From Escherichia phage vB_EcoS_SD276, in sequence record OR911938.1: a stretch of 45,453 nt of DNA, one strand, 5' to 3'. Shown piece by piece: positions 1 to 45,447 of the stretch. The notes beneath the pieces were generated by a model. It saw nothing but the letters and a program-made list of their open reading frames with translations. It did no database searches and had not been told where the DNA came from. Position numbers and translations under genes: made by a program. How positions within the stretch are numbered: the first letter of the stretch is position 1; every line of letters begins with the position of its first letter.

Positions 1-76
1 TATAATCCCCCTTAGATGGCAGGGCCGTCTCCTATGTTGCCGATGGTCGGCGCATATGAACAAAAGGGCTTATATC

Positions 77-628
77 ATGGCAGAAATCAAAGTTAAGGGC
101 CGACGCGCCAAACTGGACGGACGAGTAGCAGTAACCCCGCGCCGTAAACCAGGCGAGCAAACCGAGCATACCAATCTCGGACCGGAAATCGAATACGGAA
201 AGCGCCGTAAAGGCGGCAAATGTGGACGCCCTACTGACTACCGTTCCGTTTACTGCGACCAGCTTCGCCGCTATTTTGCCGACGCCGACGCCTGGCAGGT
301 CAACTACTCCGATAAAGGCGCTGCGCAAGTAATCCCTCGCAACAAAATGCCAACCTTCGGACGATTTGCCGCGGAAATCGGCGTGGGCGTAGCCTGCCTG
401 TATCGCTGGGCGCGTGCACATGAGGAGTTTGCCGAGGCGATGGCGGACGCAATGGAGTTACAAAAAACCTTCCTGATGGAAGCTGGCGGTGTGACCATCG
501 CGGCGGGCTTCGCTACATTCCTGCTTAAAGCAAACCACGGCGTCCGCGACGATGTACCGCTGGATGACGACGAAGATGATAACGGCGACGTCGTTGTCGA
601 ACCTTCCGGCAAAGGCCAGGGTGAATAA
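77..628 (+). CDS. terS: terminase small subunit (alternative upstream ATG at 56)
   Basis: ORF immediately upstream of and overlapping (TAATG) the large terminase; HTH-like segment GRFAAEIGVGVACLYRWARAHEEF; acidic C-terminus; AAAGGG RBS 8 nt before ATG 77. Confidence 0.6.
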   Translation: MAEIKVKGRRAKLDGRVAVTPRRKPGEQTEHTNLGPEIEYGKRRKGGKCGRPTDYRSVYCDQLRRYFADADAWQVNYSDKGAAQVIPRNKMPTFGRFAAEIGVGVACLYRWARAHEEFAEAMADAMELQKTFLMEAGGVTIAAGFATFLLKANHGVRDDVPLDDDEDDNGDVVVEPSGKGQGE

Positions 629-2013
629 TGCGTAACTATGCGGCAGAACACCGCGCACTGGAACGCGCGATCGCAAAGCGCAACCGACCACCACGCCCTA
701 CACGCGTTGCGCAGGCTGTCCGCCTTTACCAGCCGGATTGCTTGCCGCACCAGGTTGAACTATTGCGCGACACGAAGACTAAAATCCTCGGCCTGTGTTC
801 CGGCTTCGGCGGTGGCAAGTCATGGGTTGCCGCACGTAAGGTCATCCAGCTTCTGACACTTAACCCTGGTTATGACGGCATCGTGACCGAACCGACTATT
901 CCACTCCTGGTTAAAATCATGTACCCGGAACTGGAGAAGGCATTCGACGAGGCTGGCTTCCGGTGGAAGTTCAATAAGCAGGACAAGATCTACAATGTGC
1001 TGGTGAAAGGCAAATGGACTCGCGTTATCTGTGAGTCAATGGAGAACTATACCCGCCTGATCGGTATCAACGCCGCGTGGATTGTTGCCGACGAGTTCGA
1101 CACCACGAAACAAGACGTTGCTATGGCGGCATACCACAAACTTCTCGGTCGTCTGCGTGCAGGCGTAGTCCGCCAGTTTGTTATAGTGTCCACGCCGGAA
1201 GGCTTCCGGGCGATGTACCAAATATTCGAGGTGGAGAAAGACAATCAGAAACGCTTGATCCGGGCGAAGACCACGGACAACCACCATTTACCGGCAGACT
1301 TTATCGACACGCTGCGTAGTCAATACCCAGCTAACCTGATCGACGCGTACCTGAACGGCCTGTTTGTTAACCTTACGTCGGGCGCGGTGTACAAGATGTT
1401 CAACCGCGAGGAGAACGCAAGCACCGAAGAAGTGCAGCCGGAAGACACGCTGATTATCGGTATGGACTTTAACGTCACGAAAATGGCGGCGGTCGTGTAC
1501 GTCAGACGGCAGCGAGTCACTGAGAACAAGGAGTTCCGCGACGAGATTCACGCGGTGGATGAATTTGTGGACCTGTTTGACACCCCGGCGATGATTGAGG
1601 CGATCGAGGAGCGCTACCCCGAACATTGTGCCGCCGGTCGTGTTGTCGTCTACCCGGACAGCAGTGGCAAGTCACGCAAGACTGTTAACGCTTCGTCGTC
1701 CGATATCGCACAACTGGAAGACGCGGGCTTCGATGTGGAATATGACAGCGTTAACCCGCCTGTTAAAGACCGATTGATCGCGATGAATACGATGATGTGC
1801 AACTCGAAGGGCGTGCGCCAGTATTTTGTCAACCTGGATAAATGCCCTACACTAGCGAAATGTCTGGAACAGCAGGTGTATGACCTGAAGAAAGGCGAAC
1901 CGGATAAGACCGCCGGTGTGGACCACATGAACGACGCCGCGGGCTATCCTGTTGCGCACCTGTTCCCTGTGATTCGACCGATCGCCGTTGTTCCTACCGT
2001 AGACTTCTACTAA
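628..2013 (+). CDS. terL: terminase large subunit
   Basis: 461 aa; Walker A-like GLCSGFGGGKS, Walker B-like WIVADEFD, C-terminal nuclease-like acidic residues; position between terS and portal. Confidence 0.85.
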   Translation: MRNYAAEHRALERAIAKRNRPPRPTRVAQAVRLYQPDCLPHQVELLRDTKTKILGLCSGFGGGKSWVAARKVIQLLTLNPGYDGIVTEPTIPLLVKIMYPELEKAFDEAGFRWKFNKQDKIYNVLVKGKWTRVICESMENYTRLIGINAAWIVADEFDTTKQDVAMAAYHKLLGRLRAGVVRQFVIVSTPEGFRAMYQIFEVEKDNQKRLIRAKTTDNHHLPADFIDTLRSQYPANLIDAYLNGLFVNLTSGAVYKMFNREENASTEEVQPEDTLIIGMDFNVTKMAAVVYVRRQRVTENKEFRDEIHAVDEFVDLFDTPAMIEAIEERYPEHCAAGRVVVYPDSSGKSRKTVNASSSDIAQLEDAGFDVEYDSVNPPVKDRLIAMNTMMCNSKGVRQYFVNLDKCPTLAKCLEQQVYDLKKGEPDKTAGVDHMNDAAGYPVAHLFPVIRPIAVVPTVDFY

Positions 2014-2024
2014 GGAAACCGACC

Positions 2025-3545
2025 ATGACCGTTAACGTTGACAACCAGCACCCGCTCTATGCGCGCATCGCGCCAGAGTGGAAAATGATCCGTGACTGCG
2101 TAGCAGGGGAGCGCGCCGTGAAGGCGTGCGGCCCATTATACCTGCCACACCCAGCAAGCGGCGACACCACCGACCCGAAATCACGGGCACGGTATAAGGC
2201 GTATAAGCAACGTGCTGTCTTCCTGAACGCCACCGCCCGCACACTGAATGCATTGTTAGGCGTTGCCTTCGCCAAGCCGGTGAGTATAGACCTTACTGGG
2301 GCAATGGCGGACCTGATTGATGACGTAGACGGCAGCGGTATGCCTCTGGCGCAACTCCTGCGCGGCGCTATGTCGGAAGTGCTGCAATCAGGCCGTGCCG
2401 GTTTTATGGTGGACTACGACCGCCAGGCTAACTTTGATGAACTTGGTAACGTAGTGCCGCAGACAGCCGCTGAGATGGCGGCACACCGCCCGCTTATCCG
2501 CCTGTATACGGCAGAGCAGATCATCAACTGGCGGCAGACCCACGGTGTCGACACGCTAATCGTGCTGAAGGAAACGGACGAAATCAGCACCGAAGACCCG
2601 GACGACTTCGCAAACCACGAGGTAACCATCTGGACCGAGCTTCGCATGATTGACGGCAAGGCACATGGTCGACGCTGGTTTTACAACGCGGACACGTCAG
2701 ACGTGCAGATGGACTTGCCGCGCGGCTTCACCCGCACCGACTTAGTGCCGCTGGTGGATGCCTCCGGTAATGCGCTTACTCAACTGCCATTTTGCTGGTG
2801 TGGTGCTGTGGACAACAACGCGACGCCGGACGCCGCACCGCTGGCGGATATTGCATCCATCAACATTAAGCACTACAACGCCGAAGCAGACGTCGCCGAG
2901 ATTGCGCACATTGTGGGCCAACCTACACTCATTGCGACCGGTCTGACCCAATCATGGGCCGATAAAAACCTGAAGGGCGGCATCGCACTAGGCGCGACTA
3001 AGGGCGTTATCCTGGGGCAGAACATGGACGCTAAACTTCTTCAGGCGGAGGAGCGCAACTTGTCTGTTGCCCTGTGTGAGCGTCGAGAATTGCAAATGGC
3101 TAAACTGGGCGCTGCCCTGGTTGAGAAAGGGACTGCACCTAAGACGGCAACCGAAGCGGCCTACGATGCGCAGACCGATAACAGTATCCTGTCGCTTATT
3201 GCCGGTAATGTTGAGAAGGCTTTCAACCGTGCGCTGCAAATCGTCCAGCTATTCACGGGAGACACCGCAACCCAGCAAGTCACGTTGAATAAGTTTTACA
3301 CCGAGATCACGGTAGACGCACAGCTTATGACCGCGATGATGGCAGGTGTGCAGACCGGTACTGTCCGACTGGCTGACTTTATCAAGTGGATGATGGCCCA
3401 GGGCGTCATTGATGACTCGCAAACCGTTGAGCAGGTGGAAGACGAATTGCGAAATCAGAATCCATTGCCTCAAATGTCCCCGGATGCGGTAGAATCTACC
3501 GAAGAAGACCCGGACAAGGTAGCGGACAATGGCGAAGACAATTAA
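2025..3545 (+). CDS. portal protein
   Basis: 506 aa ORF directly after terL, acidic C-terminal tail; size and synteny typical of portal. Confidence 0.75.
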   Translation: MTVNVDNQHPLYARIAPEWKMIRDCVAGERAVKACGPLYLPHPASGDTTDPKSRARYKAYKQRAVFLNATARTLNALLGVAFAKPVSIDLTGAMADLIDDVDGSGMPLAQLLRGAMSEVLQSGRAGFMVDYDRQANFDELGNVVPQTAAEMAAHRPLIRLYTAEQIINWRQTHGVDTLIVLKETDEISTEDPDDFANHEVTIWTELRMIDGKAHGRRWFYNADTSDVQMDLPRGFTRTDLVPLVDASGNALTQLPFCWCGAVDNNATPDAAPLADIASINIKHYNAEADVAEIAHIVGQPTLIATGLTQSWADKNLKGGIALGATKGVILGQNMDAKLLQAEERNLSVALCERRELQMAKLGAALVEKGTAPKTATEAAYDAQTDNSILSLIAGNVEKAFNRALQIVQLFTGDTATQQVTLNKFYTEITVDAQLMTAMMAGVQTGTVRLADFIKWMMAQGVIDDSQTVEQVEDELRNQNPLPQMSPDAVESTEEDPDKVADNGEDN

Positions 3546-4632
3546 TCAATATATGGCGGATCGAATGATCCGCCGGCACATCTTCACCCAGCGCCTGAGC
3601 AATGGCCAGGCGCGAAGGGTGCTGGCTATGTGGGAGAAATTCCGGCCTACATTACTGGGGAAGCTGACCGAGTTGCTTGATGGCAAAAAGTCCATGAATA
3701 ATAAGGCACTTTCCACGCTGTTAACGCAACTCGACAAGACCGTTAAAGCAGAATTGCGCACCGAGTTTAAGGTGTTGGCTGAAAGCCTTCAGGAGTTTGC
3801 CGACACGGAGGCTGATTATCTCGCCGACACATTAACGGCAGCGATCCAGCCGGTGGTCGCCGTACCTGCGGTCGAGGTGGTTGGCGTAGTGACCGGTGCG
3901 CAGATCGCAGCGACGGCTATGAAAAACCCGTTCCAGGGAAATACCATGATGCAATGGCCTGATTCATTGTCTGAGTGGGCCAGGACGCAGATCAGGAATC
4001 AGGTGCGCGCTGGATTCATCCAGGGCAAGCCAACTATGGAAATTATAGCGGACGTGAGGCGCGCGCTCGGCGGTCGTAGTGCGCAAGCCATCTCGAGCGT
4101 TGTTAAGTCCGCAGTCAACCACTATGCGGCGACAGCCCGCGAACTAATGGTAAAAGCAAATGACGATATTCTCGAAGGTCGCCAATGGTTATCTACATTG
4201 GACACGCATACTTCTCCCATGTGCCAGCTACGCGATCGCCTGTTTTATCCGGTTGATGTTACTCCCGACACCAAAGGAAAGCGCGGCGGGAAAGTGGTGG
4301 CTGGGTCACAATATGGCGCTGGTCCGGGCAAGTTGCATTACTGTTGCCGGTCGACGGAGACGTGGAAGGTTAAAGGCATGGAAGATTGGCCCAGTGGTAA
4401 GCGTCCGGCACTGAAGGCTGACGCGGGTCGATTGCTGAGTGAGCAGGTCGACGCGCAGACTGATTTCTTCTCATGGGTGCAGCGCCAGCCGCGCCATATC
4501 CTGGAAGAATTATACGGAGTGCAACGCGCCGACCAGATTATGCGCGGCGTGAAAGTGCCAAAGATGTTCACCGATTCCGGCGAACTGATGACTATTGCAC
4601 AGCTTAAAAACCGGGGGTTGTGGCGTGATTAA
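3529..4632 (+). CDS. minor head / head morphogenesis protein (Mu F / SPP1 gp7-like)
   Basis: 367 aa after portal; C-terminal motif LSTLDTHTSPMCQLRDRLFYPVD resembles the Mu F-family domain. Confidence 0.6.
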   Translation: MAKTINQYMADRMIRRHIFTQRLSNGQARRVLAMWEKFRPTLLGKLTELLDGKKSMNNKALSTLLTQLDKTVKAELRTEFKVLAESLQEFADTEADYLADTLTAAIQPVVAVPAVEVVGVVTGAQIAATAMKNPFQGNTMMQWPDSLSEWARTQIRNQVRAGFIQGKPTMEIIADVRRALGGRSAQAISSVVKSAVNHYAATARELMVKANDDILEGRQWLSTLDTHTSPMCQLRDRLFYPVDVTPDTKGKRGGKVVAGSQYGAGPGKLHYCCRSTETWKVKGMEDWPSGKRPALKADAGRLLSEQVDAQTDFFSWVQRQPRHILEELYGVQRADQIMRGVKVPKMFTDSGELMTIAQLKNRGLWRD

Positions 4633-4954
4633 ATATGCAGCGATTGGACTGGTTATCGGTCTGGCGGTAGGATTCTGGCTAGGCGACTCCTATCGCGCTG
4701 GCGTAGTGGCGGGGGCGGCGCAAGAAGCGCAAGCCCAAGCCCAACGGCAGCAAACTAAAGTTGTTGAGCGCTCCGTGCAGGCCGAACAAGCCCGCGACGT
4801 AGAATACCGGACTATCACGAAAGAGGTTGTTAAATATGTTACGCGCCCTAACCGCCCTGATTGTAGTTTTGATGCTGAGCGCGTGCGGATCAAGCAACGC
4901 GCCGTTGATGCCGCTAACGGAGTCGGCACTGCGACCGCCGTGCAAGTTCGATAG
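4595..4954 (+). CDS. i-spanin (Rz-like); start may be GTG at 4625
   Basis: N-terminal transmembrane helix IKYAAIGLVIGLAVGFWLG followed by Q/A-rich coiled-coil segment; contains an out-of-frame lipoprotein ORF. Confidence 0.5.
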   Translation: MHSLKTGGCGVIKYAAIGLVIGLAVGFWLGDSYRAGVVAGAAQEAQAQAQRQQTKVVERSVQAEQARDVEYRTITKEVVKYVTRPNRPDCSFDAERVRIKQRAVDAANGVGTATAVQVR

Positions 4955-5066
4955 ACCGTCCGCAGACCCCGACGAAGATTTGATGATTGACGTGAAAAAT
5001 ATGGAATGCGGGGCGAAGCTAAGGGCGCAGGTGCTGGAGTTGCAGCAAATAATTAAGGGGCCATAA
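4827..5066 (+). CDS. o-spanin (Rz1-like outer-membrane lipoprotein), overlapping the Rz-like gene in another frame
   Basis: Signal peptide with lipobox LSAC-G, short Pro-containing mature part, embedded in and extending past the i-spanin ORF. Confidence 0.5.
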   Translation: MLNMLRALTALIVVLMLSACGSSNAPLMPLTESALRPPCKFDRPSADPDEDLMIDVKNMECGAKLRAQVLELQQIIKGP

Positions 5067-5079
5067 TGGCCCCTTTTTC
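5057..5079. terminator. bidirectional intrinsic terminator (GGGGCC-ATAAT-GGCCCC + T5)
   Basis: Perfect 6-bp GC stem with T-run; sits between convergent genes. Confidence 0.65.
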
Positions 5080-5080
5080 G

Positions 5081-5845
5081 TTAGCGCGGAATGCCGCAAA
5101 TCTCGTTGAGTGTTTTCACATCCAGCGCCACCGCCGTGGATTTTGGCTTGTCCGGGTATGGGATGAATTGCTCAACTTCAGGCCATGCCTTAATCAGCTT
5201 CTTGTCAGTGTTGTGCAGGTCCAGCACACCGGTAACGGTGAGTTTGAACGCATCATACTTCGCGCGCAACTCGCGACGGGCCTTGTCGTTGCGGTCCAGG
5301 CGCTTACAGAAGTCATGGTCCGCCGGGTAATCAACGCGACCGCGTGGGAGATATATCGGCAGCGCTTTCCCATCCTCGTCCACTTCGCACACTGACGCGA
5401 GCATAACTGTCTCGAACCCCGGAACGATATCGCCGAGATCAGGCGCGAGCTTATTCATATATTTCTCTTCCCAGTATCCGCGATGTACGCGGTATTGGCG
5501 ACCGTCACCGCTCAAGGACAAGGTGCGAACATTTCCGCCTGCGTTGATTTCGAAAGTGGCGTCGTAAACGCTGCCGATACCTTTCGGGCGGTCGGTGTTA
5601 TAACTATACGTCGCCTTGTTGGTGTATACGCTGACGCCGTACATCTGCGACTGGTCATCGCGGATTGACAGGATATGCTCGCGTAGCGAGGCGAATGTGC
5701 GAATGCCGTCCGGCATACAGTCCAGCGTGATTGCGTACGCCAGGTCGCGAGAGTCCATCATGATTGTTTTGGCTACGGTAGCGATTTCGTGGTCGCGCAG
5801 GATGTTAGCCAGGATCTGATTTTTAATGTCTTTTGTCAGTCTCAT
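5081..5845 (-). CDS. hypothetical protein (254 aa), antisense cassette gene 2
   Basis: Long ORF on opposite strand to flanking late genes, RBS GAGGACACAAAA-ATG, ends at bidirectional terminator 5057-5079. Confidence 0.6.
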   Translation of the reverse strand: MRLTKDIKNQILANILRDHEIATVAKTIMMDSRDLAYAITLDCMPDGIRTFASLREHILSIRDDQSQMYGVSVYTNKATYSYNTDRPKGIGSVYDATFEINAGGNVRTLSLSGDGRQYRVHRGYWEEKYMNKLAPDLGDIVPGFETVMLASVCEVDEDGKALPIYLPRGRVDYPADHDFCKRLDRNDKARRELRAKYDAFKLTVTGVLDLHNTDKKLIKAWPEVEQFIPYPDKPKSTAVALDVKTLNEICGIPR

Positions 5846-5884: not shown

Positions 5885-6199
5885 TTAGTTGAATTTGATG
5901 TTGCCACCGGTGGAAGTTAAGCGGGCACATACAGCTTCAACGGCATCGACGCACATGAAATCGTTAAAGGCTTCGACCAGGGAGTTTATGAAAGATGCCG
6001 GAACCAGGCCGCAAGCCGGATTATCGAATATCGCGGAGTTGATCGCCGCTTTTGCCGCTTCAGAAGCATTCATGCTCTGGCACAGATTCAGCGCTTCAGC
6101 GTTACGCATTGCGTGAAAGGTAAAGGTATTCGCTACGGTAGCTTTATTGAAACGGGCCATTGCGGCGTCTACTGGAGTTGCTACGGTCATGTTAGTCAT
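5885..6199 (-). CDS. hypothetical protein (~105 aa), antisense cassette gene 1
   Basis: ORF with RBS AAGGAAGACAAA-ATG downstream of a sigma70-like promoter (6235-6264, minus). Confidence 0.5.
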   Translation of the reverse strand: MTNMTVATPVDAAMARFNKATVANTFTFHAMRNAEALNLCQSMNASEAAKAAINSAIFDNPACGLVPASFINSLVEAFNDFMCVDAVEAVCARLTSTGGNIKFN

Positions 6200-6234
6200 T
6201 TTGTCTTCCTTCATATCTCTGTTGGTGTGCAACC

Positions 6235-6264
6235 AATATACCGCAACCAACATTCGCAATGCAA
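6235..6264 (-). promoter_or_regulatory. sigma70-like promoter for antisense cassette (TTGCAT-N18-TATATT)
   Basis: Hexamers read on minus strand; followed by GGTTGCACACCAAC and RBS. Confidence 0.5.
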
Positions 6265-6271
6265 GCGAATT

Positions 6272-6299
6272 TTGCGATTATTTTTATCGCTGATAATAT
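6272..6299 (+). promoter_or_regulatory. possible promoter upstream of scaffold gene (TTGCGA-N16-TAATAT)
   Basis: Hexamer match by eye, divergent from the antisense cassette promoter. Confidence 0.3.
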
Positions 6300-6353
6300 T
6301 AAGGCGTGAAGTCAAGCGGGTGGCCCGCTTTGCCACAATCCCAGGGGGATAGC

Positions 6354-7058
6354 ATGAAACTTACTAAAGCAGAATATGACGCGTTGCCAGAAGGCATGAA
6401 GGCTTTATTTGTTGCCGATGGCGATGGGTATAAATCCACGTTCATGACCGCCGAAGAAGTACAGGCGGAGATCAAGGGTCTGAAAGACAACAACGCGAAG
6501 CTGGTTAGCGAGAAGAAAGCAGAAGCCGAACGTCGCGCCGAAGCCGAGCGCCTTGCGAAAGAGAAAGAGGAAGCCGCCGCGCGCAAAAATGGCGACCTCG
6601 AAGCGATCGATAAGTCCTGGAAAGATAAGTTCGCAAAACATGAAGCGGACACATCTGGGAAGATCGAAGCCTACCGCAAGCAGATCCACGACCTAACCAT
6701 CGGCAGCGCTGCCAAAGATTTGGCCTCGAAGCTGTTCGGTAAGAATGCAGGCATCATGCAACGCCACGTTATGGACCGCCTCACGCTGGAAGACGGCGAA
6801 GACGGCAGCCTGAAGGTGCGGGTACTGAAGGACGGCAAACCATCCGCGCTGACTATGGAAGAACTGGAGAAAGAATTCCGTAGTAACGCCGATTTTGCAT
6901 CCGTCCTGGCGGGCACGCCAGCCGGCGGTGCGCCGAGCAAACCGACGCAGGTCGTAGAAGATGTGAAGTCGAAAATCACTATGGGCCACAGCTTCGGTAT
7001 CGCTGACTTGACGAAACAGGCAGGGGATATCATCGCTAAAATGGGCGACGACGAGTAA
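6354..7058 (+). CDS. head scaffolding protein
   Basis: Charged coiled-coil-like protein (KKAEAERRAEAERLAKEKEEAAARK) immediately upstream of major capsid gene; RBS AGGGGGA. Confidence 0.6.
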   Translation: MKLTKAEYDALPEGMKALFVADGDGYKSTFMTAEEVQAEIKGLKDNNAKLVSEKKAEAERRAEAERLAKEKEEAAARKNGDLEAIDKSWKDKFAKHEADTSGKIEAYRKQIHDLTIGSAAKDLASKLFGKNAGIMQRHVMDRLTLEDGEDGSLKVRVLKDGKPSALTMEELEKEFRSNADFASVLAGTPAGGAPSKPTQVVEDVKSKITMGHSFGIADLTKQAGDIIAKMGDDE

Positions 7059-22059: not shown

Positions 22060-22281
22060 TTACCACTCCCGTGATTTAACTGATACTGTGCCTGAGAAGT
22101 TGCCGTCGCTATCGGAGGACAGCCCAGTGAATCGCATGTCTACATCTCCTGCCGGTACTTTTTGCCCGTCAACGTAGCGCAACATGCAGCTACCGTAAGC
22201 AACCGTAACGCAATCTCCGTTGTTGCGTTCTACGGCGCAACCGGACAAAAGGACCGCACAAATCATAATTAAAGTTTTCAT
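22060..22281 (-). CDS. small lipoprotein, candidate superinfection-exclusion (Cor/Llp-like) protein
   Basis: 73 aa; signal peptide MKTLIMICAVLLSGC with lipobox; own promoter-like element upstream; located next to tail fibre genes. Confidence 0.55.
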   Translation of the reverse strand: MKTLIMICAVLLSGCAVERNNGDCVTVAYGSCMLRYVDGQKVPAGDVDMRFTGLSSDSDGNFSGTVSVKSREW

Positions 22282-30934: not shown

Positions 30935-33225
30935 TATTTCCTGTACCTGTACATAATGTCGCCTTCCGCTGCAAGCGGGAAGCCTTTCGCCCAAACCGGC
31001 AGGTCGCACATCAGCGCGCACAACTCCTCGGTTGTGTAGTCGTCGGTATCCGGCACTTCGGTTATCAGTTCATCGTGTACGGACAGTACGATCTCATACC
31101 CCGCAGCTTCAACGCCCGGCATGGACCATGCGAGGATATCGCGGCACAGCGCCTGCACGATGTTTTCCGTCAGTTTACCGCCGTAGGTGTACTGGAATCC
31201 CCACTGGCGCGTCGTCTGATTCTCACCCTGATATTTAATGCGGGTGCTGGTGCGCTTCTTGCCGGTGTCTTCGTCGATCTCGGTCGTGACAGACAGCGCG
31301 ATGCCGGGGTAGCTCATGATGCGCCCCGACGGTAACTCAATTTTCAACCACCACCCCGCGGCGTTCGGGTCGTCGCGCTCCTCGTCGAAGGTTGGGTCGT
31401 GCTTCGCCTTCGTGCGGACTATCTTGAGCGCTTTCCTACCATCCGGGCGAACGTTCGCGCCAGCCCAGTACGCTTTGCCAGGATTGCGGATCGCGCAGAG
31501 CACCGCGTCTTCCAGTTCAGCCCAAAATGCTACCGTCTTCGGGTGCGACTCACGCCACATACGTTTGATCGCATCACACGTCAGCCATACGTTTTTCGGC
31601 AGTATATAAGTTGGGCGCTCGTCTTTCTTGCCAGGCTTCGGCGGGCGCTTAGCTTCGTTAATGCGGGCGTATTCATATCCACGTTTCGCCGCTGCCCAAA
31701 TGTGATCGGGGAATGTGCCCTTCATGACGTCCGCCATCGCGTAAAGGTCGAGGCCCAGGTTTTTAGCGAACTGCAAGAACGCGGCAACGCCACCTCCATA
31801 GCCCAACCCCAATTCGCACGCCTTACCAATCTGGCGCAAGTCTTTGCGGTTGGCTTTAATGTATTCCGGGTCGAGGCCGAACATTTTACCGGCAGTCTCA
31901 CAATAAATATCGCGACCGGCCCTAAATACCATTAGCGCGGTTTTCTCGCCAGCGATCCAGGCGAGGCCACGCCCTTCCACGTTGGAGTAGTCCGCTACGA
32001 CAAACTTCTTGCCCTTCGCCGGAATAATGCACCCGCGAACGGTAGAGGCCGTTAGCTTCGATATGTCATATGCCCAGTGCGCTGTCCCGCGTAACAGGGA
32101 GTTGATGCCGTTGGTGAGCATGTGCGACCGCACCCAAAAGGATATATCGCTCTCGCCTTCACGGCGTTTAATCTTCCCTTCGTGGTCGTCGCTATACTCG
32201 CCGCGTGCCAGGTTTTGAGGCTGGAATCCTTTACCGGCCCAACGCAGTGTGCGCTTTGCCCCGCCATACTGGAGACACCCACGGCGGCGACCATCTGCGG
32301 ATAGGCCATTAACGAGCGGATTGTACTTAGTCGACGCCGTGGATGACGCACCGAGGCGCATCTCAATAAGAACTTTGCCTTCGTCGGGGAAGTCTGGATC
32401 TTCCAGCAGGTCGTTAAGCGTGGATTTCTGCGCGTTGTGGATTGTGAACGCAGGAGCGAGGTCGCGCAGCGCTGGCAGGAAGTCATTGCCTGTCAGCTTA
32501 CCGCCGAAGCGCTCCCAGGCTTCTTCCTTCAACTCTTCTTTATGCGCCTGTACCGCCTTGATCGCAGCGCGCGCCAGGTCAACGTCCACATAGAAGCCGC
32601 GGTCATTGATCAACTGGTCAATAAGCAGGATTTCGTCTTCCTTCGGCGTATTACCCCAGTCCGGTATGCGCCAATAGACTTCCCTCATCGCGATGATATC
32701 CAGCGCGGCATAGCGCAGGAATTTAGCCCATTCTTCAGGGTGAGTCTCGCGGGTGTAGCGGCGGATTTTGTAGGTCTTAGGGGTAGGCTTACAGAATCGT
32801 TTGATCAGCGCCTTGCCCGCCTTATCCTTCGCGTGATCTGCGTCAACTCCCAGCACCTGGCACTGCATATCGAGGCTACCAGGCAGCGCGTGCCGAAAGG
32901 CCATAATCATGGTATCTTCGATCTGACCTACCGGCAGGTCAATACCCCACTTCTCGCGAATAACCAGGCGGTCAAACAGGAGGCCGTTAGCCATCACGAT
33001 TTTTGCTTTCTTGCGCGATACCCGGCGGAGCGCCTTGCGCAGTTCACGCGGCATTGTGGGGGACTCGGTGCAATCCCATGTCTGCACGCGGCCCTCGTCG
33101 ATGGCGTATGTGCAAATCATAATCTCGGTAGTTGGGTGTTCCGCGTAGGCGTATGCGCCCACTTTCTTCAGATCCACCCCGCTAAATGTCTCGGTATCGA
33201 GAAACAGGCGTTCGAAGTCTTTCAT
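30934..33225 (-). CDS. DNA polymerase I-type (family A) with N-terminal 3'-5' exonuclease
   Basis: 763 aa; Exo I motif FLDTETF, polymerase motifs (R...GK...LG.GYGG motif A/B region, YGG, VHDE motif C). Confidence 0.9.
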   Translation of the reverse strand: MKDFERLFLDTETFSGVDLKKVGAYAYAEHPTTEIMICTYAIDEGRVQTWDCTESPTMPRELRKALRRVSRKKAKIVMANGLLFDRLVIREKWGIDLPVGQIEDTMIMAFRHALPGSLDMQCQVLGVDADHAKDKAGKALIKRFCKPTPKTYKIRRYTRETHPEEWAKFLRYAALDIIAMREVYWRIPDWGNTPKEDEILLIDQLINDRGFYVDVDLARAAIKAVQAHKEELKEEAWERFGGKLTGNDFLPALRDLAPAFTIHNAQKSTLNDLLEDPDFPDEGKVLIEMRLGASSTASTKYNPLVNGLSADGRRRGCLQYGGAKRTLRWAGKGFQPQNLARGEYSDDHEGKIKRREGESDISFWVRSHMLTNGINSLLRGTAHWAYDISKLTASTVRGCIIPAKGKKFVVADYSNVEGRGLAWIAGEKTALMVFRAGRDIYCETAGKMFGLDPEYIKANRKDLRQIGKACELGLGYGGGVAAFLQFAKNLGLDLYAMADVMKGTFPDHIWAAAKRGYEYARINEAKRPPKPGKKDERPTYILPKNVWLTCDAIKRMWRESHPKTVAFWAELEDAVLCAIRNPGKAYWAGANVRPDGRKALKIVRTKAKHDPTFDEERDDPNAAGWWLKIELPSGRIMSYPGIALSVTTEIDEDTGKKRTSTRIKYQGENQTTRQWGFQYTYGGKLTENIVQALCRDILAWSMPGVEAAGYEIVLSVHDELITEVPDTDDYTTEELCALMCDLPVWAKGFPLAAEGDIMYRYRK

Positions 33226-37752: not shown

Positions 37753-40017
37753 ATGAGCTTAATTAAATTCGCGGTAACACGACCCGCTAAAAAAGGCGAA
37801 AAAGCCAGGGCGGAAAACTTCCAGATGACCACCGATGAATTTTTCGAATTTATCAATGACGCGAAAGAAATCTCCTCGGTGCATATCAACAAGACGGAAG
37901 ATAAAGCCGAGTATGCGCGCCGCAAGCGTAAGGCCGATGGCATCGTGGCATATACCAGTGACGGCTTACGCCGCAAGACCAGTGCGGTGGACCGCTCGAT
38001 CCTGTTCTTCGATATTGACCGTACCGACACCCGCACCCTACGCCGCTGCCGTAAGGCTTTCATCGACGCGGGGCTGGAGCATGTATTCCACACAACCACC
38101 GGCGACCGCCACCCACTGAAAGGCGGAACGCGTTGCGCTCGCTTCCTGGTACTCACTGACAAGCCTGTCCCGGCTGAAGACCTGGGCCGTGTCCAGTATG
38201 CGCTATTACACCAACTTGGTCTGTCAGATGTGGACTTCGACGATTGTACGAAGGACACAAACCGTCTTATGTACCTGCCTCACCAGCAGTCTGTCATTAA
38301 GTGCCACCACGGCAAGCGCGCCAATGTGCGGCGTCTGCTCCGCCTGGCGGACAAGCTGGGGGTGGAGAAAGAGGAAGTACGCCGCGAGCTTACCCAGGGC
38401 GACGACGCAGTGGCGGACGGTATTCTGGACTGGTGCTTCCAGGCAGGATTCGAGGAGTTATCTTCCGGTCGCGGTTATGAAGTTCCGTGCCCGAACGAGC
38501 ATCTGCACAGCGGCGAAGGGTCGACGGCTATCATGGTTAAGGATGGCGAGATCCGTTTCAAATGTATGCACACCGGCAACGAGTGTTGCTCGGAGCTAAA
38601 TAGACACCAGCACCTTGCGCTACGTCTTATCGGGATACCGGACCACCTGAACGTCGAGCCGCACAACATGTCCCGTAAGCAAATCGCCGCCATCCTCCCA
38701 GGGCTGGACGACGAGGAAGTCGAATCCTTATATGAACATATTGTTGATGCGGTTGGCGACGGCGAAGAATACGGCGTGTGCACCGATGCGGATCTGGATA
38801 ACGAGCCGGTTGCGCTGTTCAGTAAGCACGACCCGATCATCGAGGGGTTGATTAACTTTAAATCGACCTGGTATATGGCGGGTGAGTCGAATATCGGCAA
38901 GTCCTTCTACGTGCTGGGGCAGATGGGCGCGGTTGCCGCGGGGATCCCGTTTGGTGGTGCGAAGGTAGTCCAGTCGCATTGCTTCTATTTTGATGCGGAA
39001 GGCGGCGAAGCCTCCAACCAGCGCAAAGAAGCATTGCAGATTAAATATGAGCACGACCTGGACAAGCTGCACATTATAGACCTGCAATCCCGCGGCTGGG
39101 ATATCACCAGCAAGTCCGGTTTGCGCGAAGTTATCAGCTTTATCAACCGCACTGCTAACGGCGAACCGGTTGGCCTGGTGGCGTTCGACTCACTCAACCA
39201 GACTGTTGCGCTGCGGTCCGCCGATGCTAAACCGTTTGACGAGAACAACGCCAGCGATATGGGTGAAGTGGTCAAAGCGCTGAAAGCCATTGCGGAAAAT
39301 ACAGGTGGCAGTGCGGGCGTCATCCACCACCCGGCGAAGGGTGCAAACGGCAGCAGATCTCCCCGTGGGTCCGGCGCACTGCATGGCGCTGTCGATTCTG
39401 CGTTCTTCCTGGAACAGCCGGACGACAACCAGCCGGGACAACTTAACCTGTACCACGAAAAATCACGTAACGGCATCAAGCAAGCGCCGCGTGGCTTCGT
39501 CCTGCTCAAGTGCAAGGTGGAGGTGGATCTCCGCAAGTCAGAAGCGTTCGCGTCGCACCAGTCCACCAGCACCGGGCCGGACTTCGGAGACGTCGTTGCC
39601 GGTTGGGACGTCAAACCAATTGCGTCCACCCCGCGCGATGAGACTCTATACCTCGTACCGGTCGCCCTGGAACCGTTCGCTATAGAACAGGCGAAGGCGG
39701 CGGGCAAAGCCGCAGTTAAGGAAGAAAACGCCGCCGGTCCGCGCAACGAAAAAGAGAAAGTGCTTTATGCGGCCCTGGAAAAACTGATGGAAGATAACCC
39801 GAACCATACCGGCTTCAGTAAATCGGCAATTGTCCGCCAGGCTGGACTCGCGAAGGGTGGTACTTCGACGAAGGCAATCGACGATATGGTCGAGCGCGGC
39901 GTGATTGGTTTCTATTCAGATCCGCACACCGGGGCCATCTATGGGTCGTCGAATTTAGTCATCAAATCGGATATCCCCATAACGCTTTCGGCGACCGATG
40001 ATGACCTGAACGATTAA
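37753..40017 (+). CDS. primase-polymerase (AEP-like) / helicase-ATPase fusion protein
   Basis: N-terminal DxD motif ILFFDIDRTD, central Cys/His zinc-binding region, C-terminal RecA-like ATPase with Walker A GESNIGKS and Walker B LVAFDSLNQ. Confidence 0.7.
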   Translation: MSLIKFAVTRPAKKGEKARAENFQMTTDEFFEFINDAKEISSVHINKTEDKAEYARRKRKADGIVAYTSDGLRRKTSAVDRSILFFDIDRTDTRTLRRCRKAFIDAGLEHVFHTTTGDRHPLKGGTRCARFLVLTDKPVPAEDLGRVQYALLHQLGLSDVDFDDCTKDTNRLMYLPHQQSVIKCHHGKRANVRRLLRLADKLGVEKEEVRRELTQGDDAVADGILDWCFQAGFEELSSGRGYEVPCPNEHLHSGEGSTAIMVKDGEIRFKCMHTGNECCSELNRHQHLALRLIGIPDHLNVEPHNMSRKQIAAILPGLDDEEVESLYEHIVDAVGDGEEYGVCTDADLDNEPVALFSKHDPIIEGLINFKSTWYMAGESNIGKSFYVLGQMGAVAAGIPFGGAKVVQSHCFYFDAEGGEASNQRKEALQIKYEHDLDKLHIIDLQSRGWDITSKSGLREVISFINRTANGEPVGLVAFDSLNQTVALRSADAKPFDENNASDMGEVVKALKAIAENTGGSAGVIHHPAKGANGSRSPRGSGALHGAVDSAFFLEQPDDNQPGQLNLYHEKSRNGIKQAPRGFVLLKCKVEVDLRKSEAFASHQSTSTGPDFGDVVAGWDVKPIASTPRDETLYLVPVALEPFAIEQAKAAGKAAVKEENAAGPRNEKEKVLYAALEKLMEDNPNHTGFSKSAIVRQAGLAKGGTSTKAIDDMVERGVIGFYSDPHTGAIYGSSNLVIKSDIPITLSATDDDLND

Positions 40018-40127
40018 AATTTGCGCGCATTGGTTGCCGATATGGGAATTCCCATATCGCTAAAAGACTAAAATTTGCGCGCATTGGTTGCCATTTTGAG
40101 TGTTTTTAGCTGGTCGCATTGGTTGCC
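40016..40127. repeat. GCATTGGTTGCC iteron-like direct repeats (3 copies) with inverted copy at 40398-40409
   Basis: AAAATTTGCGCGCATTGGTTGCC at 40016-40038 and 40070-40092, GCATTGGTTGCC at 40116-40127; flanks 20-bp perfect palindrome GATATGGGAATTCCCATATC (40039-40058). Confidence 0.6.
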
Positions 40128-40153
40128 GTGTAGTGTAAATATAATGAATAGTT

Positions 40154-40338
40154 ATGCAGTTTTATTGCATAAAGTAAGCGGGACAAAAAGAGGGACAGAC
40201 CAGGGGCGGGACAAAGCGGGACAGCACCCCCGTCCCGCCCCGGATGACGCGGCCTGGCGGGGAGCGGGACAGGCGGGACAAACCCCAGTCTTTCAGACTA
40301 GACGGGGGTCATTGGCCCCCCTCGTCTGAGACTGAATA
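40154..40338. repeat. GGGACA-rich non-coding element, copy B
   Basis: TTGCATAAA-N-GCGGGACA array ending in the same 53-bp module as copy A (identical by eye). Confidence 0.7.
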
Positions 40339-40493
40339 AAATCCGGGATTGCAAAATACACGGCAGCACATTGGAAATCGCGGTCGTCGACGAACTAGGC
40401 AACCAATGCGAGATGCGGAATGGTGGGTGGAAAATGCAGTTTGCATTTGCAACGGATAGCGATCGACTTTTTCATACGCGTGATTAATATTGG

Positions 40494-40522
40494 TTGCATT
40501 CGTGCCCGCACCCTGCTAGATT
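40494..40522 (+). promoter_or_regulatory. sigma70-like promoter (TTGCAT-N17-TAGATT)
   Basis: Followed by GGTTGCACACCAAC, the same motif that follows the -10 of promoter 6235-6264. Confidence 0.5.
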
Positions 40523-40550
40523 GGTTGCACACCAACATGAGGACCGAACA

Positions 40551-40877
40551 ATGAAAGCGATTATCTGGAATTACGCAATGGCGATGGCGAAGGCACAAGA
40601 AGCGGCGGAGTTCGCCGGTGAGGGGGCGGAAGCAGTAGAAAGACTATCGGCCGCGTGGGCTGTTGTGCGGGTAACGCAGCAGGCCATCGCCGTTATGCTT
40701 GAGCGCCGCTTCGACACGATGGATGAGATCCAGCCACTGGCGAACGCCATCCAGGACTACGCGCTAGCATTCTCCCGCGAGCGCCTGGCATATCGCTTCG
40801 GGATCGGTGAGACGGCAGCGACAAACATCGCCAGGATTAAAGCCCAGCGCGAACTATTCGCCCAGCTTGCGAAATAA
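40551..40877 (+). CDS. hypothetical protein (108 aa)
   Basis: ORF with promoter 40494-40522 and RBS GAGGA upstream. Confidence 0.45.
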   Translation: MKAIIWNYAMAMAKAQEAAEFAGEGAEAVERLSAAWAVVRVTQQAIAVMLERRFDTMDEIQPLANAIQDYALAFSRERLAYRFGIGETAATNIARIKAQRELFAQLAK

Positions 40878-41966: not shown

Positions 41967-42042
41967 TATGTGGCGGTAGTCTGGCGGCCCTGGTGCTGTT
42001 GGCGTCGGTTATTAGTCTGGTTAAATACCTATGGGGCAGATT

Positions 42043-42330
42043 ATGATTCATGATGTGATTTATTGGTTTGGTTTGATCTGCGGGTTGTGCCTGCTTACCG
42101 CGGTGTTGTTGGGCGTCCTGATGTTCGTAGTCTGGCCCGCCGTGGAAGCCGCCAGCATTACCCGCATGACGTTCGAGGTATACAAGCGCCGTGGAATCAC
42201 GGAGCACCCGACCAGGTTGCGCATGTGGTGGCTGTGGTATCGGGATATGATAGGCGGGCGAACATTCGAGGCCGTCAGGTCGAGTGGATGGGAGTGGAAA
42301 GGCGTCGGCAAGTGGTCCATTTTCGATTAA
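42043..42330 (+). CDS. membrane protein (alternative start 42031)
   Basis: N-terminal hydrophobic helices WFGLICGLCLLTAVLLGVLMFVVW. Confidence 0.4.
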   Translation: MIHDVIYWFGLICGLCLLTAVLLGVLMFVVWPAVEAASITRMTFEVYKRRGITEHPTRLRMWWLWYRDMIGGRTFEAVRSSGWEWKGVGKWSIFD

Positions 42331-42347: not shown

Positions 42348-42382
42348 AGTCCCAGTGAGCTAAAACTTACTGGGACTTTTTT
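42348..42382 (+). terminator. terminator-like hairpin immediately upstream of holin-like gene
   Basis: AGTCCCAGT-12 nt loop-ACTGGGACT followed by TTTTTT then ATG. Confidence 0.5.
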
Positions 42383-42673
42383 ATGGATAAGCTAAACGAG
42401 TGGCTATTCGCCCTGGCATGTCTGGCGGGTGGCTTCGTAGGCGCACGCATTCATGGCGAGGCCACGAAAGGGCCACTAAACTTCGTTTTGTATGTTGTAG
42501 TTGGCTTCCTGTGTGCCATATTTGGCGCACCGGCTATTGCCGAGTGGGCTGGTTTGTCGGGCGAGCGCACTGTCGCCGGTTTAGGCTTCGTAACCGCAAT
42601 CTTCTGGATGCCAATCGCCGACCGGATCCGGGAGACTATTGCGTCGTTCCGACTTCCGGGGGGTGCAAAATGA
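42383..42673 (+). CDS. holin-like membrane protein
   Basis: 96 aa with three predicted hydrophobic segments, immediately upstream of lysozyme gene. Confidence 0.5.
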   Translation: MDKLNEWLFALACLAGGFVGARIHGEATKGPLNFVLYVVVGFLCAIFGAPAIAEWAGLSGERTVAGLGFVTAIFWMPIADRIRETIASFRLPGGAK

Positions 42674-42915
42674 TTATCTCCGTCCTGTTGTTTGTTATCA
42701 TAGGGGCTTCGTCCCTGTTTAACGTGTATGCGCCGTCCGTCCAGGATGGCATTTTCGGTCGGGTGCTGTATCTGTTAACGGCAATGGTCTGTATTATCGG
42801 ATTGTTGCAAACAGGAGACGTATCTGATACCACCTGGACCGCGTTAATCTGGCTGTTTGCATTGCGCACACTGCGTAATGCTGTTTTGAATGGGGTAAAA
42901 CATGCGATTCAGTGA
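42670..42915 (+). CDS. second small membrane protein (holin/antiholin candidate)
   Basis: 81 aa, hydrophobic segments; overlaps both neighbours. Confidence 0.4.
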   Translation: MIISVLLFVIIGASSLFNVYAPSVQDGIFGRVLYLLTAMVCIIGLLQTGDVSDTTWTALIWLFALRTLRNAVLNGVKHAIQ

Positions 42916-43393
42916 CAACGGTCTACGATTTACGGCAGCATGGGAGGCTTTCAGCCCGGTGCCGTATTTCGCGACCAAGAAAGAGCAGGCCCGCGGCCTG
43001 TACACCTGGGGTTATGGTCATACCGGCACTAACCCGCCGCGAAGCATTACCCGAGCGGAAGCGCTGGATCTGCTTAAGCGCGATGTGGCGTACGCTGAGG
43101 ACTGGGTGAACAAATACGCACATCCGAGCATTAACCAGGCGCAATTCGACGCGCTGGTGGACCTGGTAATCAACGCCGGTCCTGGTCCGATCGTACCGGA
43201 TGACGTCGCGAATGATTTCGATGATGCGGTGCGACTGGGCGACTGGGCGAAGGTCCGGGCTATACTGCCGCAGTTCCGCAAGCAAGGCGGGTCGGTGCTC
43301 TTAGGTCTGGTACGTCGCGCAATCGGCAGACAGGCGCTATTCGATGGTAAGCAGTGGGACGTTGCCGAGAAAATCGGGCGTAACGCAGCATAA
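42902..43393 (+). CDS. endolysin, lysozyme-like (GH24-type)
   Basis: N-terminal catalytic region with WEAF...YTWGYGHTG resembling phage lysozymes. Confidence 0.65.
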   Translation: MRFSDNGLRFTAAWEAFSPVPYFATKKEQARGLYTWGYGHTGTNPPRSITRAEALDLLKRDVAYAEDWVNKYAHPSINQAQFDALVDLVINAGPGPIVPDDVANDFDDAVRLGDWAKVRAILPQFRKQGGSVLLGLVRRAIGRQALFDGKQWDVAEKIGRNAA

Positions 43394-43409: not shown

Positions 43410-43823
43410 ATGTTAAAAAGCATTCTTGATCATAACGCTGACGCGCTCGCCGCGCTGGCTAAAACCGAAGACCCTGGCGCACGCGCTATCATCGCGGACA
43501 CTATCAGCCATGCAGGCGTCTTTGACGCGAAGCTGCCGAGTGTGCCGGAAAGTAAGCCGGTGGCAAGTGCGACCGTAACCATCACCCCAGTGTCAGCCGC
43601 AGTTGGTGCGAAGGCCGCCGCTTCAGTTGCCGTCCTGCCATCCGACGCAACTAACAAGGCTGGGTCGTGGGTGTCTGCAAACCCTGACTGCGCGGCAATC
43701 GATCAGGCTACCGGCGAAATCACAGCAAAATCGGAGGGTAGCGTCCACATCTTTTGGGTGGCGTCCGATGGAGGCGGGGCGCTGGCGTCCGCCATCTTCA
43801 CCGTAACGGGAGCCGCGGAATAA
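43410..43823 (+). CDS. hypothetical protein with bacterial Ig-like (Big_2-like) C-terminal domain
   Basis: Pattern VTITPVSAAV...AIDQATGEITAKSEGSVHIFW typical of Ig-like domains. Confidence 0.45.
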   Translation: MLKSILDHNADALAALAKTEDPGARAIIADTISHAGVFDAKLPSVPESKPVASATVTITPVSAAVGAKAAASVAVLPSDATNKAGSWVSANPDCAAIDQATGEITAKSEGSVHIFWVASDGGGALASAIFTVTGAAE

Positions 43824-43830
43824 AACCACA

Positions 43831-43857
43831 AGCCCGGAATCGACCGGGCTTTTTATT
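43831..43857 (+). terminator. intrinsic terminator after Ig-like protein gene
   Basis: AGCCCGG-AATCGA-CCGGGCT followed by TTTTTATT. Confidence 0.6.
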
Positions 43858-45417: not shown

Positions 45418-45447
45418 CCAGCCTGCCGATTTGGTGGGCTTTTTTGT
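45418..45447 (+). terminator. possible weak terminator at end of window
   Basis: Imperfect GC-rich stem followed by TTTTTTG. Confidence 0.3.

Follow-up and report, generated by a model that had tools for sequence, protein, structure and literature searches.

A predicted two-component spanin at the end of the packaging and head gene block of Escherichia phage vB_EcoS_SD276

Escherichia phage vB_EcoS_SD276 (OR911938.1) carries, behind a head-morphogenesis gene, two overlapping open reading frames (ORFs) that resemble an inner-membrane and an outer-membrane spanin (i-spanin and o-spanin), and its holin-like and lysozyme genes are located elsewhere. This raises the question of whether the two frames really encode the spanin of this phage and whether a lysis gene set divided in this way is peculiar to its genome. 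The window, which is the whole stretch of 45,453 nucleotides analysed here, is by its sequence relationships a complete Dhillonvirus genome (that of an HK578/SSL-2009a-like coliphage), linearised just 5' of the small terminase gene, because Dhillonvirus phages (PEC14, SSL-2009a, YD-2008.s, B2, and others) share 95-97% nucleotide identity with the 3-kb stretch around the spanin pair and because the ORF order is co-linear with RefSeq NC_012223.2 (SSL-2009a) from terS onwards. The 3-kb query matched 157 records, and at least 80% of the query was covered in 137 of them. The + strand genes terS (56..628), terL (628..2013), portal (2025..3545), and head morphogenesis (3529..4632; SPP1 gp7-like, phrog_241, E 1.4e-117, and so annotated in RefSeq SSL-2009a) form a block, of which the spanin genes are the final members.

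Two overlapping genes with spanin features

The first gene of the pair (4625..4954, + strand) is predicted to encode an i-spanin of 109 aa. The listed ORF is longer (119 aa, 4595..4954), with a TTG that is the mechanical start of the longest ORF. The start of the i-spanin is likely the GTG at 4625, because a GGGGG run sits 8-12 nt 5' of it, it overlaps the TAA stop of the head-morphogenesis gene (GTGATTAA), the RefSeq start of the SSL-2009a i-spanin is the same, and the N-termini of i-spanin homologues align there; TTG 4595 was rejected in its favour on the spacing of the ribosome-binding site, RefSeq, and these N-termini. The preliminary description had placed the pair directly after the head-morphogenesis gene, which the overlap of GTG 4625 with the stop of 3529..4632 bears out, and had delimited it as 4595-5079. 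The pair does lie there, but both limits need correction, as the first gene starts at 4625 and 5079 is 13 nt past the o-spanin stop at 5066, which falls inside a hairpin at 5055-5075.

A single N-terminal transmembrane helix was predicted at about residues 3-20 of the i-spanin, with the hydrophobic maximum at residues 1-20, and the N-terminal hydrophobic segments align throughout the i-spanin family. Beyond this helix, a helix-rich periplasmic domain is predicted, which is high in A, V, R, Q, and E and includes the only cysteine of the protein, Cys80, also predicted to be periplasmic. An AlphaFold model from the single sequence (low confidence, mean pLDDT 57), which was taken for secondary structure alone, consists of a helix at residues 3-72, a linker at 73-83, and a second helix at 84-97. 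One N-terminal transmembrane helix with a largely helical periplasmic C-terminal domain is the predicted layout expected for the i-spanin of a two-component spanin.

The second gene is contained in a listed ORF of 79 aa (4827..5066), in a different + strand frame from the i-spanin ORF. From the ATG at 4836 (4836..5066, + strand), which is preceded by AAGAGG at a spacing of 9 nt, it encodes a putative o-spanin with a precursor of 76 aa and a predicted mature form of 60 aa. The signal, MLRALTALIVVLMLSAC, contains the lipobox LSAC with Cys17, Gly at +2, and Ser at +3; judged from the sequence alone, the protein has the signal peptidase II signal and lipobox cysteine of an o-spanin, with no Asp at +2. 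Two further cysteines, Cys36 and Cys58, are predicted to be periplasmic. The o-spanin gene is in the +1 frame relative to the i-spanin gene, and the two overlap by 119 nt. Among the arrangements of adjacent spanin genes (embedded, overlapped, or separated), this overlap in different frames is the "overlapped" architecture, in contrast to the "embedded" one of lambda. In RefSeq, SSL-2009a gp05 and gp06 have exactly matching coordinates, and each is named "Rz-like spanin". A GC-rich, terminator-like hairpin with T-runs on both strands (5055..5075; 9-bp stem with six GC pairs in a terminator scan) contains the o-spanin stop TAA in its loop and sits between the o-spanin gene and a convergent minus-strand Nmad5 gene.

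For analysis of the codon positions, the window was aligned with 15 Dhillonvirus loci from IMG/VR, giving 16 genomes, and the variable sites were counted. In the segment that belongs to the i-spanin gene only, 23, 11, and 44 variable sites fall on codon positions 1, 2, and 3, which is a third-position excess; the corresponding counts in the o-spanin-only segment, read in the o-spanin frame, are 12, 5, and 22. In the overlap, they are 15/5/15 in the i-spanin frame and 5/15/15 in the o-spanin frame. This substitution pattern is that of dual coding, as expected if two frames constrain each other. All 16 genomes retain the lipobox cysteine (Cys17), Cys36, and Cys58 in the o-spanin and Cys80 in the i-spanin, and four relatives have an i-spanin of 102 aa with a shorter, variable C-terminus.

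A scan of all ORFs in six frames for lipoprotein signals returned four matches (alternative o-spanin starts counted once), of which two, the o-spanin and a Cor-like lipoprotein (22060..22281, minus strand), are credible. The matches at 32122..32304 and 33035..33148 (both + strand) are short ORFs that lie opposite long ORFs of the minus strand, and they were discounted by inspection. The lack of a lipoprotein signal would have told against the pair; instead, the lipobox is present and its cysteine constant. A recent recombinational insertion of the pair was also considered and was rejected on sliding-window identity to four relatives, which has no sharp mosaic boundary. Identity dips modestly at the pair (about 79-89% vs 89-95% in the flanks, in the relatives L013 and L015), and the truly variable segment starts 3' of the terminator hairpin, beyond the spanin genes.

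Family assignment and likeness to known spanins

In the PHROG families, the i-spanin was matched to phrog_2536 (E 2.6e-36), and two more "Rz-like spanin" families matched it more weakly; the o-spanin was matched to phrog_5672 (E 6.2e-26) and phrog_1267 (E 7e-12), and phrog_2536, phrog_5672, and phrog_1267 are all "Rz-like spanin" families. In Pfam, neither protein matched a spanin model (Rz, named Phage_lysis, or Rz1) even at E <= 0.1, so that both are outside the lambda Rz/Rz1 families at the gathering threshold, and in NCBIfam nothing matched either of them. The likeness to lambda is therefore one of architecture, and the pair is not filed under the Rz/Rz1 sequence families. The preliminary description of an overlapped Rz/Rz1-like pair stands in this sense, on the transmembrane protein and lipobox, the PHROG spanin families, and the 119-nt overlap.

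Rz and Rz1 of lambda are the prototype i-spanin and o-spanin. Like them, the pair combines a type II inner-membrane protein with an outer-membrane lipoprotein (both predicted here), encoded in different frames of shared DNA and having periplasmic cysteines, and the presumed role, the last step of Gram-negative lysis, is the same. Unlike Rz1, which is fully embedded, the o-spanin gene here runs past the i-spanin stop, and its predicted mature product (60 aa) is longer than that of lambda (about 40 aa). The spanin genes are also away from the holin and endolysin genes in this phage, which differs from lambda.

According to a survey of spanins (Kongari et al. 2018, PMC6139136), an overlapped "Jersey" family has 27 members, including Jersey, SETP3, and K1ind2, and lists both proteins of HK578, JL1, SSL-2009a, EP23, EK99P-1, and SO-1. 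In its shorter second subfamily, running from EP23 to SO-1, the i-spanin has two helices with a linker and a variable extreme C-terminus, and the o-spanin has two constant cysteines (PMC6139136). Both proteins of the present pair are similar to members of this family. They are 95-97% identical to those of SSL-2009a (i-spanin 96%, o-spanin 95%; locus L006, IMGVR_UViG_643677414, with the same gene coordinates), and tblastn matched them to SETP3 (E 1.9e-12 for the i-spanin and 1e-15 for the o-spanin) and K1ind2 (E 1.3e-11 and 1e-10, respectively). In alignments with the proteins of SETP3 and K1ind2, identity is 35-46%. The i-spanin motif EVVKYV..P.R..C.FD.ERV..K.RAVDAAN is common to SETP3, K1ind2, Klebsiella phage ZX4, and two metagenomic phages, and in the homologue alignment the o-spanin motifs PPCK and DEDLAIDV.N.EC are shared likewise. 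Cys36 and Cys58 align with cysteines in the o-spanins of SETP3, K1ind2, and the metagenomic contig L022; the o-spanin of L024, which is embedded and more distant, has no aligned counterparts.

The pair has the second-subfamily features, namely overlapped genes, two periplasmic o-spanin cysteines, and a helix-linker-helix i-spanin, the last according to the low-confidence model. It also has the same genomic position, 3' of the head-morphogenesis gene and 5' of the scaffold gene; nothing substantial sets it apart, with few substitutions relative to the closest relatives.

Homologues of these spanins, at 31-39% identity, are present elsewhere in intact holin-endolysin-spanin cassettes. L022, a lambdoid-like contig, encodes two holin-like proteins, an endolysin, an i-spanin, and an o-spanin, followed by the terminase, and in L024 the embedded pair adjoins a lysozyme and a holin-like gene. 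Klebsiella phage ZX4 has an endolysin, a holin, and an i-spanin together with an unannotated overlapped o-spanin (L004:6721-6966); the spanin match in Klebsiella phage 2 LV-2017 adjoins a lysozyme gene, and that in Vibrio phage pYD38-A adjoins a holin gene. Such homologues inside intact cassettes provide independent support for the spanin assignment.

Position relative to the holin and endolysin genes

The holin-like genes and lysozyme had been described at 42383-43393, and profile searches agree. Two membrane proteins are encoded on the + strand, the first being a holin or antiholin of 96 aa (42383..42673; phrog_2359 "holin", 8.5e-32) and the second a holin-like protein of 81 aa (42670..42915; phrog_2508 "holin", 2.1e-27). 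They are followed by an endolysin of the phage lysozyme family (42902..43393, + strand; PF00959, 4.5e-19; phrog_7, 1.1e-34). On inspection of the sequence, the N-terminus of the endolysin has no hydrophobic segment, and the enzyme is therefore read as soluble and holin-released.

On the circular map, 6684 nt separate the endolysin stop from the start of the i-spanin gene, with six or more genes in between: the Ig-domain gene, a 380-aa exonuclease, a 70-aa ORF, terS, terL, portal, and head morphogenesis. Hence, holin, endolysin, and spanin genes do not form a contiguous cassette, and the earlier statement that the terminase/portal block separates them even on a circular map was correct. The next gene after the endolysin encodes an Ig-domain (Big_2) structural protein by profile match (43410..43823, + strand), not the canonical spanin pair that would have undermined this reading, and the six-frame scan for lipoprotein signals revealed no other spanin near the endolysin, either as a two-component o-spanin or as a unimolecular one.

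The preliminary description had proposed comparing gene order in relatives. In all 15 Dhillonvirus loci, the i/o-spanin pair immediately follows the head-morphogenesis gene and precedes the scaffold and major capsid genes, and a variable slot is located 3' of the pair. The holin-holin-endolysin-Ig genes precede terS in each of the 11 loci whose DNA reaches that far upstream, and the exonuclease gene is also present in eight of these 11. Jerseyvirus SETP3 has the order terS, terL, portal, head morphogenesis, decoration protein, i/o-spanin (5969..6464), scaffold, and major head protein, and its holin-holin-endolysin genes are at 39683..40722, which is the same split as here. Kagunavirus K1ind2 has the same head-module order, the shared layout covering the spanin position, and its GenBank record GU196280 labels the pair "putative spanin ... 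overlapping gene". Between Dhillonvirus and the SETP3 and K1ind2 groups, identity is about 40% for terL and about 30% for portal; since the order is the same despite this distance, the split predates the divergence of these groups. Gene order and sequence comparison thus indicate that the split layout is ancestral to Dhillonvirus and Guernseyvirinae and no peculiarity of this genome. The unusualness that the preliminary description implied was overestimated, as the arrangement is fixed in the 15 Dhillonvirus relatives, common to Jerseyvirus SETP3, and on record in RefSeq and in print.

Proposed role, alternative explanations, and implications

On their sequence features and by analogy with lambda, the two ORFs very probably encode the two-component spanin of the phage, a member of the overlapped "Jersey" family, which would act by a lambda-type mechanism. 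The literature on Dhillonvirus or HK578 and spanins yielded annotation-level mentions and no experimental work on this spanin family; with no experimental test of the Jersey family found, the function assigned here rests on architecture, family assignment, and context. As in lambda Rz/Rz1, the N-terminal helix would anchor the i-spanin in the inner membrane, and the o-spanin would receive its lipid at Cys17 and, with no Asp at +2, be carried to the outer membrane. Contact between the C-terminal periplasmic parts of the two proteins would produce a periplasm-spanning complex, to which homotypic disulfides (Cys80 of the i-spanin; Cys36 and Cys58 of the o-spanin), linking homodimers, would probably add stability. 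The peptidoglycan meshwork would keep this complex inactive till the holin-released endolysin degrades the wall; fusion or disruption of the outer membrane by the complexes could then follow.

Because spanins build up harmlessly until the cell wall is removed, and the holin sets the timing, they need no co-regulation with the holin. Their genes can therefore close the terS-terL-portal-head-morphogenesis block, which places them 6.7 kb 3' of the holin-holin-endolysin genes. The spanin genes of T4 are unlinked to the holin gene t and the endolysin gene e (Kongari et al. 2018, Fig. 8 legend, PMC6139136), so linkage to the holin is not required. T4 pseT.3/pseT.2 resemble the present pair in this respect and in the size of the i-spanin (117 aa vs 109 aa here). 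They differ in having a separated gene architecture and belonging to another sequence family, and the holin and endolysin of T4 are unlinked to each other too.

It is highly improbable that the pair is instead some other envelope system, such as Cor/Llp-like superinfection exclusion or receptor masking with a small inner-membrane partner. Exclusion by small phage lipoproteins is known, and one lipoprotein of this genome, at 22060..22281 (minus strand), is Cor-like; such a system would also fit a pair that lies apart from the lysis cassette, that adjoins a hypervariable slot with accessory genes such as Nmad5, and that no spanin model of Pfam or NCBIfam matched. However, the homologues directly after holin and endolysin genes in several unrelated phages argue for a spanin, and a transmembrane protein with an overlapped lipoprotein and conserved periplasmic cysteines is the defining spanin pattern. 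Both PHROG and the curated spanin survey place the two proteins in spanin families, and the window holds no other spanin candidate, despite the Gram-negative host and the canonical holin and endolysin.

The split might also be only apparent, if one long late transcript began at about 42.3 kb, crossed the genome "ends", and stopped at 5.07 kb and the lysis and morphogenesis genes formed a stretched operon. All genes from 42383 through 5066 are indeed on the + strand, with no minus-strand gene between them, and a consensus scan gave no strong sigma-70 promoter before terS or before the spanin genes. This arrangement is possible but rather doubtful, as two terminator-like hairpins with T-runs are present on the + strand in the interval from the endolysin to terS (43830-43851 and 45420-45440) and another is found just before the first holin (42348-42377). 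A single transcript would in any case leave the gene order unchanged. The hairpins are consensus pattern matches, from which alone the transcription units were drawn, with read-through or antitermination possible; taken at face value, they put the spanin genes last in a unit that starts with terS and is separate from that of the holin and endolysin genes. For the two-component spanin read here, a selected rather than neutral position at the end of the packaging and head block seems unlikely, although the position is older than the divergence of Dhillonvirus and Guernseyvirinae and, in Dhillonvirus, the start of the pair overlaps the stop of the SPP1 gp7-like gene. Under such selection, spanin dosage or timing could be tied to the expression of capsid assembly genes, or the spanin genes could be kept apart from a separately exchanged lysis-timing module.

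The split spanin layout is already known from RefSeq, the 2018 spanin survey, and at least one genome announcement. RefSeq NC_012223.2 marks the same coordinates as spanins, and several GenBank records annotate spanins, including an i-spanin and an o-spanin in the BASEL phage Oekolampad. The genome note of the E. coli siphophage Schulenberg, which is Guernseyvirinae-like and belongs to another genus, describes the holin/antiholin and endolysin genes as "genetically separate" from the overlapping spanins, as is the case here (PMC6763661). In a 2025 paper on Dhillonvirus, the holins are genes 31 and 32, the endolysin gene 33, and the spanin gene 40, without comment (PMC12677095). As it has been recorded for the whole genus and a sister subfamily, the layout is ordinary.

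The result has little import beyond correct annotation, which gives this genome a full lysis set of two holins, an endolysin, and a predicted two-component spanin. In the engineering of Dhillonvirus phages, or in deletions of "non-structural" parts of the head block, loss of 4625..5066 would probably impair lysis. More generally, spanin searches that are confined to the surroundings of the endolysin miss real spanins.

Hairpins and genes flanking the holins and endolysin

A strong terminator-like hairpin (42348..42377, +), consisting of a 12-bp stem followed by TTTTTAT, is located 6 nt upstream of the start codon of the first holin gene (42383..42673, +), so holin expression would require read-through, antitermination, or an unrecognised promoter. 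Two more hairpins, 43830-43851 and 45420-45440, flank the stretch that lies between the endolysin gene and the small terminase gene. Just upstream of the two holin genes, the gene at 42031..42330 (+) encodes a 99-aa protein with a hydrophobic N-terminal segment (phrog_2531), which shares 63-99% identity with its counterparts in relatives and could be an additional lysis regulator. Directly downstream of the endolysin gene (42902..43393, +), and in a common hairpin-bounded unit with it, an Ig-domain (Big_2) protein, structural or decoration-like, is encoded at 43410..43823 (+); its C-terminal part is highly variable in relatives (56-100% identity, partial matches).

The slot between the spanin pair and the scaffold gene

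Two minus-strand genes, 5081..5845 and 5885..6259, occupy the interval between the terminator-like hairpin that follows the spanin genes (5055-5075) and the scaffold gene. The gene nearer the hairpin codes for an Nmad5 protein (PF18757, E 1.2e-58); the second is a short ORF (phrog_24635). The slot downstream of this hairpin is hypervariable across the Dhillonvirus relatives, and Nmad5 is missing or replaced in four of them (L008, L010, L015, and L016). A point mutation in Dhillonvirus nmad5 has been reported to allow phage escape from the Tmn defence system (2025; PMC11846954).

Constraint and divergence in the spanin genes

In Klebsiella phage ZX4 (NC_054654.1), RefSeq lists the i-spanin (gp12, annotated as 'Rz-like spanin') as the only spanin; we also identified downstream of it an unannotated, overlapped o-spanin of 81 aa with the lipobox ISGC (6721..6966, +).

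In the SD276 genome, the bases at 4821..4838 serve both spanins: they encode K-E-V-V-K-Y, the most conserved motif of the i-spanin, and also make up the ribosome-binding site (AAGAGG) and start codon of the o-spanin gene. This segment is therefore constrained in one frame by the i-spanin motif and in the other by the initiation of o-spanin translation. Nucleotide identity to three relatives (L013, L015, and L017) dips gradually across 4625..5066 compared with the flanks, without a sharp recombination edge. In the same relatives, the spanin proteins share 79-85% identity with those of SD276, whereas the flanking head-morphogenesis and scaffold proteins share 96-98%, indicating that the spanin pair evolves faster than its structural neighbours.
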